Shown one piece after another: positions 211-5,220 of a stretch of 16,373 bases of DNA. Numbering within the stretch: position 1 is the stretch's first letter; every line of letters begins with the position of its first letter. Source of the DNA: an uncultured Clostridia bacterium. Lineage in GTDB: Bacteria > Bacillota > Clostridia > Oscillospirales > UBA644. The notes beneath the pieces are model-generated. The model saw only the letters and a program-made list of their open reading frames with translations, had not been told where the DNA came from and did not search any database. The DNA lies in assembly GCA_944386305.1 (NCBI GenBank), contig CALXAN010000075.1, positions 1 through 16,373 on the forward strand, read 5' to 3'. A program made the translations under genes and the position numbers.

Positions 211-239
211 TTGCTCTTTGGAAGGATTTGTAGTATAAT
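211..239 (+). promoter_or_regulatory. Candidate sigma70-type promoter for the WYL-regulator operon
   Basis: TTGCTC (211-216), 17-bp spacer, TATAAT (234-239). This is about 50 nt upstream of the RBS GGGAGG (275-280) and the GTG start at 289. A small hairpin AGAGC-N7-GCTCT overlaps the -35 and could be an operator. Confidence 0.4.
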
Positions 240-288
240 ACAGATAAAGAATCAGAATGTATATGTTTTAATATGGGAGGTGAACGCT

Positions 289-1527
289 GTGTCGTCGTAT
301 AGCGAGTTAATTAAGAATTTTGAAAAGGTCCGCAGTTATATGCGTGAGTTTTATGTTTACGGTTTTAAGAGTCGTGAGGAATATGACAAAAAAAGCGCCC
401 GTTCTTACGATGATGAGCGCCGCCGGATGGAAAGCTGGCTCGGAGATCATATGAGCTTTGTCCGTACGCCCGAGGGCAAAAACGTGTTCATTTCAATCGA
501 CAGTCGTGTATCACAGCACAACCCCTTTTATAAAGCATTTAAGGCAAAGAGTTTTACCGACGGCGATATCACATTACATTTTATTTTGTTCGATATTTTG
601 CACTCACCCGAGACAGTCCTTTCCCTGCCGGAAATACTCGCAAAAATTGACGAGTATTTGTCGGGGTTTGAAAATCCGATGGTGTTCGATGAGTCTACAG
701 TCAGAAAGAAACTGAAGGAATACATACAGCAGGGCGTCATCAGCTCTGAAAAAGTGGGCAGAAAAATATTGTACCGCAGGGCAGATGACGTAGTTTTGAC
801 GAATATTGCCGATGTGCTGAATTTTTATTCTGAAGTTGCGCCCTGCGGTGTGATAGGCTCTTTCTTACTTGATAAAGAGGAAAATAAAGACGATGTTTTC
901 AGCTTTAAGCACCACTATATAACTTCCGCCATGGACAGCCATGTTCTGTCGGTGTTCTTTAAAGCTATGCGTGAAAAAAGCGTCGTAACGGTGTCTAACC
1001 TGAGCCGCCGCGCGGATGAGCCCCGAATGAACAGAATCATACCCTTGCGCATATTTGTCAGCGTTCAAAACGGCAGGCAGTATCTGCTTGCGTATCAGCC
1101 TGATTTTAACGTGATCAAATCATTTCGGATAGATTATTTATCCGATGTAAAAATTGAAGAACCTACGCCTCGTTTTGACGAACTGCGGGCCGAACTTGAT
1201 GAAATGCAGACAAAAATGTGGGGCGTTATCGCCAAACGAAACCGTTACGGCGAAGATAATATCGAGCATGTAAAGTTTACGGTTAAGGTAGCGGACGACG
1301 AAGAATATATTGTGCGCCGTCTTGAGCGCGAGAAAAGGATCGGACATATTGAAAAGATAGACAATAATACCTATTGTTTCACTGCAGACGTGTATGATAC
1401 AAACGAGCTTATTCCTTGGATCCGCACCTTTATCTGCAGGATAACCGAGCTGCAGTTCTCTGAACGCACGCTTGAAAATCAGTTTAGGCGCGATATTGAA
1501 AAGATGTATCGTATGTACGGAGTTTAG
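289..1527 (+). CDS. WYL-domain transcriptional regulator-like protein: N-terminal wHTH-like region, WYL domain, C-terminal WCX-like extension
   Basis: ORF-track frame 211..1527. I place the start at the in-frame GTG 289 because GGGAGG lies 8 nt upstream and the track's TTG at 211 sits inside the promoter. The central motif RQYLLAYQPDFNVIKSFRIDYLSDVKI matches the WYL signature (hydrophobic-Y-L...FR-hydrophobic-D-R/Y-I). The C-terminal ELIPWIRTFICRITELQ resembles the WCX 'wilsfG..veVleP' end. Confidence 0.75.
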   Translation: MSSYSELIKNFEKVRSYMREFYVYGFKSREEYDKKSARSYDDERRRMESWLGDHMSFVRTPEGKNVFISIDSRVSQHNPFYKAFKAKSFTDGDITLHFILFDILHSPETVLSLPEILAKIDEYLSGFENPMVFDESTVRKKLKEYIQQGVISSEKVGRKILYRRADDVVLTNIADVLNFYSEVAPCGVIGSFLLDKEENKDDVFSFKHHYITSAMDSHVLSVFFKAMREKSVVTVSNLSRRADEPRMNRIIPLRIFVSVQNGRQYLLAYQPDFNVIKSFRIDYLSDVKIEEPTPRFDELRAELDEMQTKMWGVIAKRNRYGEDNIEHVKFTVKVADDEEYIVRRLEREKRIGHIEKIDNNTYCFTADVYDTNELIPWIRTFICRITELQFSERTLENQFRRDIEKMYRMYGV

Positions 1528-1538
1528 GAGGCGCAGGC

Positions 1539-2444
1539 ATGATATTTAATGAAATATATTCCGCCTATTATAACGCCGTAGCAAAAATGATTACCGCTGT
1601 TCTTGACGGCAAGACAGACCAAAAAACTCTCAGCCAAATAGTTTGCGACAATGCCTTCGGTGAGAGTATGCTGACAGTGCTACCTTCTCTCAAAAGCGGA
1701 AAGTGGCAGCTTATAAAAGCGGATCTGACCACTCCGCTAAAGCATATCCCTACGCTGCCGCTGACTCTGATGCAAAAGCAATGGCTGAAAGCCATATCTC
1801 TTGATCCTCGTATAAAGTTATTCGGTGCGGAAATAAGCGGCCTTGAAGAAGTAGAGCCCCTGTTTACTGCAGATGATTATTTAATATATGATAAGTACAG
1901 TGACGGGGATCCGTATGACGATGAGGACTATATTAAAAGATTTCGGATCATTTTATCGGCCTTAAAGGAAAAGCAGCCGCTTAAAATACAGACGGTTACC
2001 CGAAAGGGTAATACCGTCTCGATGACGGTCATGCCGCAGCGCTTGGAATATTCCGAAAAGGATGATAAGTTCAGGCTTATCAGTACGGGGTGCCGATATG
2101 GAGAAATTGTAAACCTTACTCGAATTAAAACATGTGAAAAATGTTCTGCATTTAAGGCGCATTATCATGCTGCGCCGATAAGGGAATCGATGACGCTGCG
2201 CGTTGTCGACGAGCGTAACGCGCTTGAGAGATGCCTGCTCCATTTCGCGCATTTTGAAAAACGGGTGGAAAGGGCTGCTCAAAAGCAATACCTTGTCCAT
2301 ATCCGATATGATAAGAGCGATGAAACCGAAATGGTAATCCGCATTTTGAGCTTTGGACCTATGGTCGAGGTAACGGCGCCGAATGAATTCAGAAATTTAA
2401 TAATTGACCGCCTAAAAAGCCAAAAAAGCTGTGGACTTATTTGA
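1539..2444 (+). CDS. Second WYL/WCX-family regulator-like protein with a divergent N-terminus, probable partner of the upstream WYL protein
   Basis: ATG 1539 with RBS AGGAGG overlapping the stop of the previous gene, suggesting translational coupling. The C-terminus MVIRILSFGPMVEVTAPNEFRNLIIDRL is the canonical WCX ending of WYL regulators. The middle segment KFRLIS...IVNLTRIKTCE is a degenerate WYL-like motif. Confidence 0.7.
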   Translation: MIFNEIYSAYYNAVAKMITAVLDGKTDQKTLSQIVCDNAFGESMLTVLPSLKSGKWQLIKADLTTPLKHIPTLPLTLMQKQWLKAISLDPRIKLFGAEISGLEEVEPLFTADDYLIYDKYSDGDPYDDEDYIKRFRIILSALKEKQPLKIQTVTRKGNTVSMTVMPQRLEYSEKDDKFRLISTGCRYGEIVNLTRIKTCEKCSAFKAHYHAAPIRESMTLRVVDERNALERCLLHFAHFEKRVERAAQKQYLVHIRYDKSDETEMVIRILSFGPMVEVTAPNEFRNLIIDRLKSQKSCGLI

Positions 2445-2460
2445 GTTCGCAGCTTTTTTT
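2424..2460 (+). terminator. Weak candidate intrinsic terminator after the WYL pair
   Basis: AAAAGCTG (2424-2431) pairs with CAGCTTTT (2450-2457) around a large 18-nt loop that contains the stop codon. A T7 run follows (2454-2460). The large loop and AU-rich stem base limit confidence. Confidence 0.3.
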
Positions 2461-2482
2461 CCGTGTTTTGAAGGGGAAATAT

Positions 2483-2491
2483 TGGTAAAAT
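2483..2491 (+). promoter_or_regulatory. Candidate extended -10 promoter (TGgTAAAAT) for the SPFH–rtcB operon
   Basis: TG-N-TAAAAT at 2483-2491 with no good -35. It would give a leader of about 380 nt before ATG 2883. No sigma54 -24/-12 element was seen. Confidence 0.25.
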
Positions 2492-2610
2492 ATGCATGCA
2501 GGGTTTCTTTGAGCGAGTGTTTGAGATATCACTGCGGTGCGCAAGGCTATGCCGACGCGTATGCCCAAAAAAAAGAGTCCCTTGCATAATCTGTTGAGTC
2601 CTGCAGGCTT

Positions 2611-2650
2611 TGACAGATGCAGACGCGGGTTCGAATCCCGCCGTATGCGA
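2611..2650 (+). other. tRNA-like 3' fragment: canonical T-arm plus a 3' acceptor strand, with no matching 5' half
   Basis: GCGGG-TTCGAAT-CCCGC (2625-2641) is a textbook T-stem-loop (G53 T54 T55 C56 R57 A58 ... C61). It is followed by a 7-nt strand CGTATGC and a discriminator-like G. Only 41 nt lie between the best 5' partner (GCATAAT, 2584-2590, 5 of 7 pairs) and the T-stem, too few for D and anticodon arms. It closely resembles the tmRNA/tRNA 3' end (..GACGYGGGTTCGAnTCCCRCCGT..) but no full gene fits. Confidence 0.4.
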
Positions 2651-2882
2651 TTACAGCATATTCCATGGTTTGGTTACTGCCGCAAACGGCAAATTATTTC
2701 AGGTTCAGTGATTACTCTGTTCAGGCAATGCTCCCGCTGCCCTGTCCGGTAACGGATACCGTGTATCAAGCATATAGGCCAAAAGTTTCCTTTCCGCCCA
2801 TATGCGCGACCGCTCAAGTTTTCGGCCGCAACGGGAGCATGAGTAATTGCAATCGTATTTTGAAACCTCGGGGAGGCATATT

Positions 2883-3983
2883 ATGAAAAAGATTATCATC
2901 AATGAAAATCAAAGAGGATTTTTGTTTAAAAACGGAAAGTATGTTAAAATGCTTACGGCAGGCAGGTACCATGCCTGCGGCGGTAAAGAGATCGAAGTAG
3001 TAGATTTGGATAGTCCTATAGTTTCCGGCAAATGCGCATTGGACGTCATTCTGAACGATAAAGCTGTCGCAGGCGCCGTATCGGTCGTTGAAGTCGCCGA
3101 CCGGCAGTTAGCTCTGCATTTTGTAAACGGGAAATTTGCTTCAGTGCTTTGCCGCGGCAAATATGCCTTTTGGTCCCAAATAGATAAGCATGAATATAAA
3201 TTTGTGGATATCTCTACGCCTGAAGTGGCTGCCGATGTGCCGGAGTACATTTTTTCTGAGATTCCCGCCGCCTATTATACCAAGGTCGAGGTTTTGGAAT
3301 ATCAGAAGGCAAGACTTTATTTCAATCAGAAATTCGTAAGGATACTGGATGCCGGTACATATTATTTCTGGGAAAACGGCGTAAAAATTGATGCAAGCTT
3401 TGTTGACGTAAGGCTTACTCAAATGAACATTACCGGTCAGGAAATTTTAACTCAGGATAAAGTTTCTCTTCGCATCAATTTTGTCTGCAGCTACCGCGTT
3501 ACCGATTATGTGAAGATTTTGACCGAGATAGACGATTTTGCCGAGCAGATGCATGTGGCGGCGCAGCTGGCTCTGCGCGAGTATGTCGGCAGGTATAAAC
3601 TGGATGAAATTCTTGATAATAAGGCTCAGATGTCCGAGTTTGTGCTTGAAAAACTGAAAGCAAAGGAAAAGTCGCTGTATGTCGAAATCACGGACGCCGG
3701 CGTAAAGGATATTATTCTGCCCGGTGAAATCCGCGAGATTATGAACACTGTCTTGATAGCCGAAAAACGCGCTCAGGCCAATGTGATCACCCGCCGCGAG
3801 GAGGTCGCGTCTACCAGGTCCCTGCTCAATACCGCCAAACTGATGGACGAGAACCAAACCCTCTATAAGCTCAAAGAATTTGAGTATATCGAGCGTATCT
3901 GCGAAAATGTCGGCAATATCAATTTAAACGGCAACGGCGACGTGCTGACTCAGCTCAGGGGTATCTTGAGAGGCAATGTATAA
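2883..3983 (+). CDS. SPFH / band-7 (stomatin-prohibitin-flotillin-HflKC) family protein, apparently cytoplasmic, with a triplicated N-terminal hairpin motif
   Basis: ATG 2883 with RBS GGGGAGG (2870-2876). The track ORF starts earlier at 2847 without an RBS. The SPFH core is QEILTQDKVSLRINFVCSYRV ... VKDIILPGEIREIMNTVLIAEKRAQANVITRREEVASTR. Three N-terminal repeats resemble the start of the SPFH fold: NQRGFLFKNGKYVKMLTAGRYH, RQLALHFVNGKFASVLCRGKYAFW and QKARLYFNQKFVRILDAGTYYFW. No hydrophobic transmembrane segment is present. Confidence 0.85.
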   Translation: MKKIIINENQRGFLFKNGKYVKMLTAGRYHACGGKEIEVVDLDSPIVSGKCALDVILNDKAVAGAVSVVEVADRQLALHFVNGKFASVLCRGKYAFWSQIDKHEYKFVDISTPEVAADVPEYIFSEIPAAYYTKVEVLEYQKARLYFNQKFVRILDAGTYYFWENGVKIDASFVDVRLTQMNITGQEILTQDKVSLRINFVCSYRVTDYVKILTEIDDFAEQMHVAAQLALREYVGRYKLDEILDNKAQMSEFVLEKLKAKEKSLYVEITDAGVKDIILPGEIREIMNTVLIAEKRAQANVITRREEVASTRSLLNTAKLMDENQTLYKLKEFEYIERICENVGNINLNGNGDVLTQLRGILRGNV

Positions 3984-4011
3984 GCGTAAAAATATCAGAA
4001 AGGAATTTATT

Positions 4012-5220
4012 ATGATAGAGATTGCAGGCAAGTTTAATACTGCCGTATGTTATACAAACGAGCTTGAGCCTACCGCATACGCTCAAATCGAGTCCGTATG
4101 CAATGAGGAGGCCTTTAAGGATTCTAAAATCCGTATAATGCCCGATGTGCATGCCGGAAAAGGCTGCACTATCGGCACGACAATGACTGTGACGGATAAA
4201 GTCGTACCGAATATGGTGGGCGTGGATATCGGCTGCGGAATGTACACTGTATATTTGGGTAAAGTCGACATTGATTTGGAAAAGTTTGATGCTGCCGCGC
4301 ACTCTATTCCCTGCGGCAGAAATGTTTGGGAGAGCAGACAGGAGAGGTTTGATTTGACCGCGCTGTGCTGCTACCGCAGCCTAAAAGACACCAAAAGACT
4401 TAAGAGGAGCCTCGGTACTTTAGGCGGCGGCAATCACTTTATAGAAATCGACGCCGACGCCGACGGCAGTAAATATTTGATTATCCATTCTGGCAGCCGT
4501 AACCTCGGCACGCAGGTCGCTGAGTTCTATCAGGGCATTGCCGTCGATTTGAGCCTTGGCAAAGAAGATTATTTCAAAAAGCGCGACGAAATAATCCGTA
4601 CGTATAAAGAGACCGGCCGCAGAAGTGAAATACAGGCTACTCTCAAAAAAATGGCTGACGAGTGGGAGAATAAGGAGCCTGCAATGCCCCGTGAGCTCTG
4701 CTACCTGTACGGCGCTTTTATGGAGGACTATCTGCATGATATTAATATCTGCCAGCGGTTTGCACAGCGCAACCGTGAGATGATGGCGCAGATATTGCTG
4801 CATAAGACAGGCCTTGCAGCTCTTGAAGCATTTCAGACCGTTCATAACTATATAGATGTCGACGAAATGATTCTTCGCAAAGGCTCTGTATCCGCTAAGG
4901 CGGGAGAAAAACTCTTAATCCCCATAAATATGCGAGACGGAAGCCTTATCTGTGTGGGCAAAGGCAACGAGGATTGGAATAATTCCGCGCCTCACGGTGC
5001 AGGAAGGCTTATGTCCCGCTCCGCCGCTTTTGAAAGACTGACAATGGAAGAGTATCGGGCGCAGATGGCGGGCATCTATACCACCTGTGTGAATACTTCT
5101 ACTCTCGACGAGTCGCCAATGGCTTACAAAAATATGGATGAAATCATTGAGAATATTGAACCCACTGCAGAGATTATCGCGCATATCAAGCCCATATACA
5201 ATTTTAAGGCGGCAGAGTGA
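4012..5220 (+). CDS. rtcB: RtcB-family RNA 3'-phosphate/2',3'-cyclic-phosphate ligase
   Basis: ATG 4012 with RBS AAAGGAA, 28 nt after the SPFH stop. Hallmark RtcB motifs are present: MPDVHAGKGCTIG, PNMVGVDIGCGM, GTLGGGNHFIEI, SAPHGAGR. The N-terminus (KFNTAV...) aligns with E. coli RtcB. Length is 402 aa. Confidence 0.9.
   Translation: MIEIAGKFNTAVCYTNELEPTAYAQIESVCNEEAFKDSKIRIMPDVHAGKGCTIGTTMTVTDKVVPNMVGVDIGCGMYTVYLGKVDIDLEKFDAAAHSIPCGRNVWESRQERFDLTALCCYRSLKDTKRLKRSLGTLGGGNHFIEIDADADGSKYLIIHSGSRNLGTQVAEFYQGIAVDLSLGKEDYFKKRDEIIRTYKETGRRSEIQATLKKMADEWENKEPAMPRELCYLYGAFMEDYLHDINICQRFAQRNREMMAQILLHKTGLAALEAFQTVHNYIDVDEMILRKGSVSAKAGEKLLIPINMRDGSLICVGKGNEDWNNSAPHGAGRLMSRSAAFERLTMEEYRAQMAGIYTTCVNTSTLDESPMAYKNMDEIIENIEPTAEIIAHIKPIYNFKAAE

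Follow-up and report, generated by a model that had tools for sequence, protein, structure and literature searches.

The closest described counterparts of the RNA reported here are b7a-tRNA and YrlA. The former is a predicted, unvalidated RNA located beside Band-7 and RtcB genes; in the passages of Wang et al. (bioRxiv 10.1101/312249) that concern it, it is called strongly tRNA-like and apparently interchangeable with YrlA, and the prediction is credited to Burroughs and Aravind (2016). No follow-up on b7a-tRNA was found in the searchable literature. YrlA (Rfam RF02553; Chen et al. 2014, PMC4201824) is also found inside an RtcB RNA-repair operon. In Salmonella, the regulator RtcR responds to tRNA fragments, and YrlA, which is left uncleaved by a damage-induced nuclease, has been suggested to be a competitive inhibitor of an anticodon nuclease (PMC7790460). 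The present locus lies in a stretch of 16,373 nt from an uncultured Clostridia bacterium (contig CALXAN010000075.1), called the window below, and centres on the 438-nt intergenic leader (2445-2882) between a WYL/WCX-domain gene and the gene of a cytosolic slipin, an SPFH/Band-7 protein, which is followed by rtcB.

This leader is predicted to encode a structured RNA in which tRNA-related elements stand in the order V hairpin, T arm, closed acceptor-like stem-loop (AS) and D-arm-like stem-loop; judged by comparative sequence analysis, the module is permuted and tRNA-derived. We give a probability of roughly one half to the reading that the RNA is the cognate partner of a soluble, vault-like slipin in RtcB repair. 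The same V, T, AS and D order is seen in YrlA, whose T arm GCGGGuUCGAnnCCCGCC is nearly identical to that of the window, and in one relative (L017) T, AS and D line up in register with the RF02553 model (14.2 bits against a threshold of 69), the D-arm-like stem-loop of L017 falling on the YrlA D arm. In the window itself, the YrlA model gave no match at E<=10. The window RNA differs from YrlA in having the slipin gene as its partner and in lacking a Ro-binding terminal stem, the strands that flank the module being unpaired with one another and leading instead into P1/P2 and 3' domains; no TROVE (Ro60/Rsr) domain was found in the 10 large window open reading frames (ORFs) scanned, which include every ORF of at least 400 aa.

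Like b7a-tRNA as portrayed in the cited passages, the window RNA adjoins a Band-7/SPFH gene in an RtcB neighbourhood. There, however, b7a-tRNA is described as resembling an authentic tRNA, whereas the window copy receives no ARAGORN or Rfam call and its covariation favours a permuted layout with a closed acceptor. Compared with the same description, the window module is also set in a leader of ~385-490 nt with a large 3' domain and a 5' P1/P2 domain.

Two of the programs named for the purpose in an initial annotation of this DNA gave no call in the window: ARAGORN found neither tRNA nor tmRNA, and Rfam at gathering thresholds gave no tRNA (RF00005), tmRNA (RF00023), T-box or riboswitch. The only trace was a partial tmRNA match of 22 bits (threshold 47) at E<=10, covering the T arm and a D-loop-like GCAGGCUUUGA. 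T-box and riboswitch models had no match in the leader at E<=10 and none at gathering thresholds in the window and four relatives. The T arm and its preceding bases are almost identical to those of tmRNA, but the acceptor/CCA end, tag reading frame and pseudoknots of tmRNA are missing. With vault RNA, major vault protein (MVP) and TEP1 (a TROVE protein) the system shares, as an analogy only, a small structured RNA and a protein that combines beta repeats with an SPFH shoulder and a long helix; vault RNAs do not resemble tRNA in the manner of the window RNA, and a slipin cage and its RNA binding would rest on this analogy. The operator of E. coli thrS and the T-box are also tRNA-related 5' leaders before a gene for a tRNA-handling product, but they have zero sequence or covariance-model similarity to the window leader.

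Structure and conservation of the leader RNA

The following sources have been used for the comparison: 7628 relatives of the slipin at E<=1e-10, of which the best 120 have 61-99% identity, and 80 loci, all of them metagenome-assembled genome (MAG) or database sequences, with MAGs of Oscillospiraceae, Acutalibacteraceae, Lachnospiraceae, Christensenellaceae and others as sources. Counts of pairs and double changes were taken on MAFFT alignments, and the T-arm-centred alignments cover -200 to +300. Covariance model R1 represents the T arm, the following hairpin, the D-like stem-loop and the next hairpin (57 training sequences), and model R2 the 3' domain of the leader.

The initial annotation had put a T arm plus 7 nt at 2625-2648 in a leader of ~440 nt, and its letters were exact: GCGGG-TTCGAAT-CCCGC occupies 2625-2641 and CGTATGC 2642-2648. 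The exact 17-mer of the T arm occurs once in the window, and 0.10 chance matches are expected with up to three mismatches. The 7 nt had been taken as a 3' acceptor strand, to which no D arm or acceptor partner seemed to belong. The strand is there, but it forms the 5' half of a closed hairpin (2643-2661) and not an acceptor end, and D-like and acceptor-like partners are present in permuted position downstream of the T arm.

Ahead of the slipin gene, R1 matches 67 of the 80 loci at the same position with E<=1e-6, E-values of such short-calibrated models being rough; the window match (2619-2702) has 63.3 bits. Genuine tRNAs in the 80 loci are matched by R1 at T-arm positions only and with less than 20 bits. 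In most of these loci a T-loop motif lies ~300-350 nt upstream of the slipin start, and many have two. The comparative alignment of related leaders proposed earlier thus finds the segment conserved. Within the tRNA-like core, 93.9% of cells are paired and 113 double-change cells were counted against 35.6 in shuffles that ignore phylogeny, with none of 500 shuffles as high; every slid register collapses. For the 5' domain and the core together, the values are 98.4% paired cells and 89 double-change cells against 23.6 in shuffles of the same kind (0/500). In the AS hairpin, both partners are changed in five of the six pairs (25, 17, 7, 4, and 3 sequences), and the D-arm-like stem-loop of the window is one base shorter than the consensus. 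G.U pairs in the hairpins identify the plus strand as the RNA strand. Hairpin H4, which follows the D-like element, is the only hairpin inside the window's leader that was flagged as terminator-like, and this solely through its AU-rich tail; relatives have no U-run after it. The coordinates of all features are collected in Table 1.

Table 1. Positions of the genes, control elements and RNA elements of the locus in the window
Feature	Position	Strand	Evidence and remarks
WYL-domain protein 1, putative regulator	211-1527	+	Pfam WYL PF13280 6.7e-07; PADLOC WYL 4e-13; start codon provisional
WYL/WCX-domain protein 2, putative regulator	1539-2444	+	Pfam WCX PF25583; PADLOC WYL 4e-08
Terminator-like inverted repeat after WYL2	2422-2465 (also given as 2422-2459)	+	Stem of 17 pairs
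Near-invariant 23-bp box GAGTTCGCAGCTTTTTTTCCGTG	2443-2465	+	Right arm of the repeat plus T-run; alignment
Extended -10, TGgTAAAAT	2483-2491	+	Near-invariant in alignment A2
Whole structured leader RNA, ~385 nt	2497-2882	+	Predicted start to slipin start codon; conserved end to end (alignments A1, A2)
P1, 5' strand UGCAGGG	2497-2503	+	Pairs with 2580-2586; RNAalifold on full alignment
P2 hairpin, GUGCGC / GCGUAU around GGC-UAU-GCC	2537-2562	+	100% of cells paired; includes strand A (2557-2563)
P1, 3' strand CCCUUGCA	2579-2586	+	RNAalifold and alignment-free test
V hairpin, AUCUG...CAGAU, apical loop CCUGCAG	2589-2618	+	Alignment; long, variable
T arm, GCGGG-UUCGAAU-CCCGC	2625-2641	+	100% paired in 57 sequences; CG<->UA in 9, GC<->AU in 6
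Closed acceptor-like stem-loop AS, GUAUGC-GAUUACA-GCAUAU	2643-2661	+	Covariation
D-arm-like stem-loop, CCA-UGGUU-UGG	2663-2673	+	Conserved GG; 90.6% paired; 2 pairs double-changed
Hairpin H4, UGCCG-CAAA-CGGCA	2678-2691	+	UA<->CG in 19 sequences, CG<->GC in 14
3' domain	2708-2850	+	Closing helices 2708-2717/2841-2850 and 2728-2736/2832-2840
3'-domain hairpin GCAUAUAGGCC-AAAAG-UUUC-CUUU-CCGCCCAUAUGC	2770-2805	+	15-40 double-change sequences per stem pair
Translation-initiation region: CCUC (anti-SD-like), GGGGAGG (SD), ATG at 2883	2866-2885	+	Conserved
Cytosolic slipin (SPFH/Band-7)	2883-3983	+	Pfam Band_7 1.3e-26; ATG at 2883
RtcB RNA ligase	3976-5220	+	Pfam RtcB 1.6e-58; overlaps slipin gene
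SD, Shine-Dalgarno sequence.

Strand B, the 7 nt following the T arm (2642-2648), can pair either with the downstream strand A' in the AS hairpin, which covaries, or with the upstream strand A; the A:B pairing is compatible in 94.5% of cells and shows zero double changes. ARAGORN relies on A:B when it reports a tRNA (Asp-GUC, His-GUG, among others) at the homologous element of six Clostridial loci. The P2 hairpin with GCC(C)A (2537-2566) and the AS hairpin with (CG)CCA (2643-2668) are near-duplicate sequences, and strand B is compatible with both A and A' for this reason. The duplication could have been left behind by tandem tRNA units, or it could be a switch.

Three other foldings or motifs were considered and set aside. 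A canonical cloverleaf with strand A as the 5' acceptor is compatible with the sequences but has no double changes, its strand A is held in the covarying P2, and in Photobacterium P2 is separate from the tRNA units. A pairing of UUGCAUA (~2582-2588) with UAUGCGA as acceptor was given up: CUUGC is part of P1, and AS takes up the bases that follow the T arm. A hammerhead-like CUGAUGAG in the V hairpin of relatives was rejected by eye, the motif being variable (CGAAUGAG, CUGUUGAG) and its GAAA core missing.

The six closest relatives (L001-L006) have a second T arm GGGGUUCAACUCCCC and a hairpin GGAC-CUGUCGA-GUCC after the V hairpin, and the window is gapped exactly at this second T arm and anticodon-like hairpin, as if they had been deleted between two T arms. 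Hairpins with a 7-nt loop NUGUNNN are present in 33 of 66 distinct leaders (CUGUCAA in 11, CUGUUAA in 7, CUGUAAA in 6, and UUGUGAA in 2), mostly at the V position, with four cases at the AS position, and these loops cover all four queuosine-family anticodons. Anticodons of the GUN type form the queuosine family; they are substrates of Tgt and targets of colicin E5.

The 5' end of the leader RNA (~2497-2499) is a predicted transcript start. The leader RNAs of relatives have 389-490 nt, the window copy standing at the small end, and no Rfam family was found in the leader of the window and four relatives at gathering thresholds. The leader RNA is unannotated, being absent from Rfam and from RefSeq annotation. 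Helix P1 was also examined by an alignment-free test, in which its own pairing failed to beat re-pairings in 5 of 5000 trials; for variant sequences the count was 0 of 5000. In P2, AU<->GC exchanges were found in 12 sequences and AU<->CG exchanges in 18.

The 3' domain shows compensatory changes in 26 of its 29 core pairs, and R2 gives 101.6 bits in the window (2732-2842). Its invariant motifs include GGAUACCG (2754-2761), GCCAAAAG...CUUUCCGC, and CUCAAG...GCCGC. The GGAUACCG core occurs in 76 sources. Its distance to the first start codon is mostly 126-144 nt, and this codon is the slipin start wherever the slipin gene comes first. An imperfect inverted repeat in this region, which the initial annotation had proposed as a regulator site, is real (2770-2779 / 2796-2805), but its many compensatory changes mark it as an RNA hairpin and not as a DNA operator. 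The initiation region (U)ACCUUUAAGGAGGAUUACAUAUUAUG (window 2860-2885) is conserved across genera, the spacer between SD and ATG included, and in 41 of 52 leaders the SD is immediately preceded by an ACCU/CCUU motif; we infer that this anti-SD-like motif may sequester the SD. In one locus (L018, ~3790-3900), unrelated sequence, probably an insertion, interrupts the 3' domain after GGAUACCGUGUUAUAG and makes the leader ~100 nt longer.

Operon context and relatives beyond Clostridia

The cassette WYL1-WYL2-RNA-slipin-RtcB recurs among the 80 loci, with WYL1 in 58, WYL2 in 65, and RtcB in 64 of them; absences are mostly at contig ends, and the genes flanking the cassette differ between loci. In 67 of 69 loci, the core motif of the GAGTTCGCAGCTTTTTTTCCGTG box is present and keeps a fixed spacing to the T arm. 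This box is unique in the window, near-invariant across families, and located ~20 nt upstream of the extended -10, and it may be the operator of the WYL pair, being a better candidate for this than the inverted repeat of the 3' domain. A sigma-70 consensus scan misses the extended -10 (2483-2491), and there is no good -35, which is what an activator-dependent promoter would show; the promoter is probably of this type and controlled by the two upstream WYL proteins. Sequence search gave no solved structures for the WYL proteins. PADLOC on the window found no known defence system, only generic WYL matches, and no slipin homologues were found in a phage collection.

The slipin has no hydrophobic N-terminus. 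Its AlphaFold (AF2) model (mean pLDDT, the predicted confidence score, 80) has two N-terminal beta repeats, an SPFH domain and a 60-residue helix. Foldseek with this model gave stomatin, HflK/C and prohibitin as the best matches; MVP alignments are the longest (~400 columns, against at most 260 for the other listed families). The modelled protein fits a soluble slipin with an MVP-like layout, which would be compatible with a cage-like assembly with an RNA partner. An SPFH gene inside an rtc locus has also been noted in P. aeruginosa.

Some loci depart from this layout. Two relatives (P0002 and P0004) of the 366-aa slipin have 637-638 aa at 61% identity and are possibly products of fusion or duplication. 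An extra ORF of ~221 aa, matched by no Pfam or NCBIfam family, stands between the RNA and the slipin gene in L021, L040, L041, L042 (3318-3983), L047, L048, L051, L056, L060, and L067; in L042 it starts within ~85-135 nt of the GGAUACCG core, and for the other nine loci it is deduced from the longer RNA-to-slipin spacing. The slipin gene is followed not by rtcB but by a calcineurin-like phosphoesterase gene in L037 (5338-6471) and by a 300-aa ORF without family in L062 (5158-6060). Gut-1 RNA (Rfam RF01706, 50.6 bits) lies between the two WYL genes of L052 (1534-1617, minus strand). Just downstream of rtcB in L008 (5050-5127, minus strand) there is a tmRNA-3'-end-like sequence GGCACGUGGGUUCGAAUCCCACCAUCUCCGCCA with a terminator, at which ARAGORN calls no gene; it could be a truncated ssrA or an attachment (att) site.

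Full-length slipin homologues with 32-33% identity are present in Proteobacteria. The order in Citrobacter freundii (L081) is rtcR, a 448-nt gap (4547-4994), slipin and RlaP nucleotidyltransferase, and within the gap a sigma-54-type promoter and a hairpin with a CUGUUUU loop are accompanied by a T arm, a closed hairpin and a D-like stretch. In E. coli O145 RM9872 (L083, 4280-4807), a tRNA-like leader, again with a CUGUUUU-loop hairpin, lies upstream of a slipin-RlaP operon, and R1 with filters off places T-AS-D at 4615-4688 (20 bits). The sigma-54-type promoter of the E. coli and Citrobacter leaders is TGGCACGCTTCTCGCA. The E. coli slipin locus, between yjbD and lysC, was found in 1632 of 5426 complete genomes (~30%), and RefSeq annotation gives no RNA at this slipin-leader locus. 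With R2, no 3' domain was detected in the E. coli and Citrobacter leaders, runs with filters off included; a homology hinted by GAUGCCG...GGCAAAAG is given no support by R2 and was rejected. As far as these searches reach, the Clostridial 3' domain is lineage-specific.

In Burkholderia cenocepacia (L084, 3138-3238), ARAGORN calls a 73-nt 'tRNA-???' ~260 nt upstream of the slipin gene. It consists of an acceptor stem, a canonical D arm, an 'anticodon' arm capped by GAAA and a T arm with the same sequence as in the window, and an extra T-arm hairpin precedes it. In Photobacterium (L085, 3120-3306), the slipin gene is preceded by a P2-like element and, after it, two tRNA-like units in tandem; the units of these two loci are near-canonical, and ARAGORN calls them 'tRNA-???' and tRNA-Met. 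Since tRNA-like elements stand upstream of slipin genes across phyla, the element is tied to this slipin family, whatever the regulator (RtcR or the WYL pair) or the enzyme (RtcB or RlaP). It is a reasonable inference from these sequences that the Clostridial arrangement arose from tandem tRNAs.

Possible roles of the leader RNA

If the RNA is the partner of a vault-like slipin/RtcB system, it would be transcribed in structured form (~385 nt) as the 5' part of the slipin-rtcB operon, and its T-loop/D-loop 'elbow' would be a handle tethering it to the slipin-RtcB repair machinery. The tethered RNA might be a scaffold, a cofactor or a competitive decoy, by analogy with YrlA-Ro60. Binding of slipin or RtcB to the RNA could also feed back on translation, since the RNA would be made in cis and ends at a fixed distance before the start codon.

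Four points weigh against this partnership. The window copy is a reduced variant in which the anticodon-like loop is missing and the D loop shortened. The T-AS-D core has been lost in L016, L029, and L070, and partly in L007 and L015, with P1/P2, the 3' domain, slipin and RtcB kept; because such loci keep the slipin, the tRNA-like core is not indispensable for it. The 3' domain is the most conserved Clostridial part and has a fixed distance from the start codon, which argues for cis-regulation at least as much as for a ribonucleoprotein. Finally, the window RNA fits a Clostridial form of the Band-7-associated tRNA-like RNA, an equation drawn from gene context and from a secondary citation.

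A possible though tentative alternative is that the leader is mainly a cis-regulator, in which the operon's own proteins acting on the tRNA mimic, or a damaged or uncharged tRNA or a ligand acting on the 3' domain, would set slipin/rtcB translation; it would then resemble autoregulation by mimicry, as at the thrS operator, or a T-box. The stretch from the RNA to the slipin gene has no conserved terminator, and the spacing of the 3' domain from the first start codon, mostly 126-144 nt, agrees with such a role, as does the persistence of this domain where the tRNA-like core is lost. However, no riboswitch or T-box model matches it, and the domain is undetected in E. coli and Citrobacter leaders that keep the tRNA-like module. 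The anti-SD-like ACCU conserved in 41 of 52 leaders is suggestive of translational control, but the predicted anti-SD hairpin is weak (3-4 bp). The mutually exclusive pairings B:A and B:A', together with a 5' hairpin overlapping P1, would suit a switch, but the A:B alternative lacks double changes, and internal duplication can account for it.

It is unlikely, on our estimate, that the leader is a self-contained sensor of RNA damage built by remodelling tandem tRNA units. Its tRNA mimic, with a queuosine-family (GUN) anticodon loop in many members, would be bound or cut by the nucleases or repair proteins of the cellular tRNAs, and cleavage, religation or protein capture of the mimic would switch B:A/B:A' and the 5' hairpin/P1 and so set slipin-RtcB translation through the 3' domain. 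Such a sensor role is weak for the window copy, because its anticodon-like loop is missing.

Quite unlikely, too, is a built-in role of the tRNA mimic as decoy or damage sensor for anticodon nucleases: a cutter of GUN loops, of the colicin E5 type, would also cut the mimic, leaving a 2',3'-cyclic-phosphate fragment that RtcB would religate or that would carry a signal to the WYL regulators. The idea is attractive for members with the UGU loop. The NUGUNNN loops with all four queuosine-family anticodons and the CUGUUUU loops of E. coli and Citrobacter speak for it, as do the ARAGORN readings of several elements as tRNA-Asp or tRNA-His; however, the UGU loop is missing from the window and from half of the family, and Burkholderia has a GAAA tetraloop in place of the anticodon loop. 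The Salmonella work (PMC7790460) likewise points both ways: tRNA fragments activate RtcR, and competitive inhibition of an anticodon nuclease by YrlA has been suggested, but the damage-induced nuclease left YrlA uncleaved. Of the window genes that were examined, none was identified as a toxin gene.

That the element is a decaying pseudogene of a tRNA, or a functionless hairpin resembling a T arm by chance, is very improbable: the missing ARAGORN and Rfam tRNA calls and the reduced window copy would suit it, but conservation and covariation are deep across Clostridia families, and the element recurs upstream of proteobacterial slipin genes. We give almost no credence to a tRNA or tmRNA 3'-end remnant at an integration site (attL/attB) of horizontally acquired DNA, which the initial annotation had considered and had found in agreement with a supposed GC drop: the T arm and preceding bases GACGCGGGUUCGAAUCCCGCC resemble a tmRNA 3' region (the 22-bit partial Rfam match) and L008 has its tmRNA-3'-end-like sequence, but the position relative to the operon is constant in 67 of 80 loci with differing flanks, the T arm and adjacent helices show compensatory changes, the bases after the T arm form a covarying hairpin without an acceptor/CCA end, GC is not lowered (0.51 at 2551-2850 against ~0.44 in the flanks), and the window has no integrase and no repeat partner. 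Conservation, together with recurrence of the cassette between differing flanks, therefore practically excludes both an integration scar and a dead pseudogene. The annotation's other proposal, that the leader of this RNA-repair operon deliberately imitates a tRNA, has held up as far as identity is concerned, the element being conserved, covarying, tRNA-derived, and slipin-linked across phyla.

As a kind, a tRNA mimic linked to Band-7 and RtcB is already predicted in the cited passages on b7a-tRNA. To our knowledge, the permuted covarying architecture, the large leader with its strongly conserved 3' domain, the control region of WYL type, the recurrence of GUN loops and the widespread, unannotated E. 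coli homologue are new. Bacterial RtcB repair systems are widespread, and their substrates and cofactors are poorly understood; at the present locus, WYL-type regulators with a candidate operator replace RtcR. If the leader is indeed a damage sensor, it would represent a new class of cis-acting 'substrate-mimic' riboregulator, present also in ~30% of E. coli strains. The E. coli homologue makes the role of tRNA mimics in RNA repair testable in a model organism.

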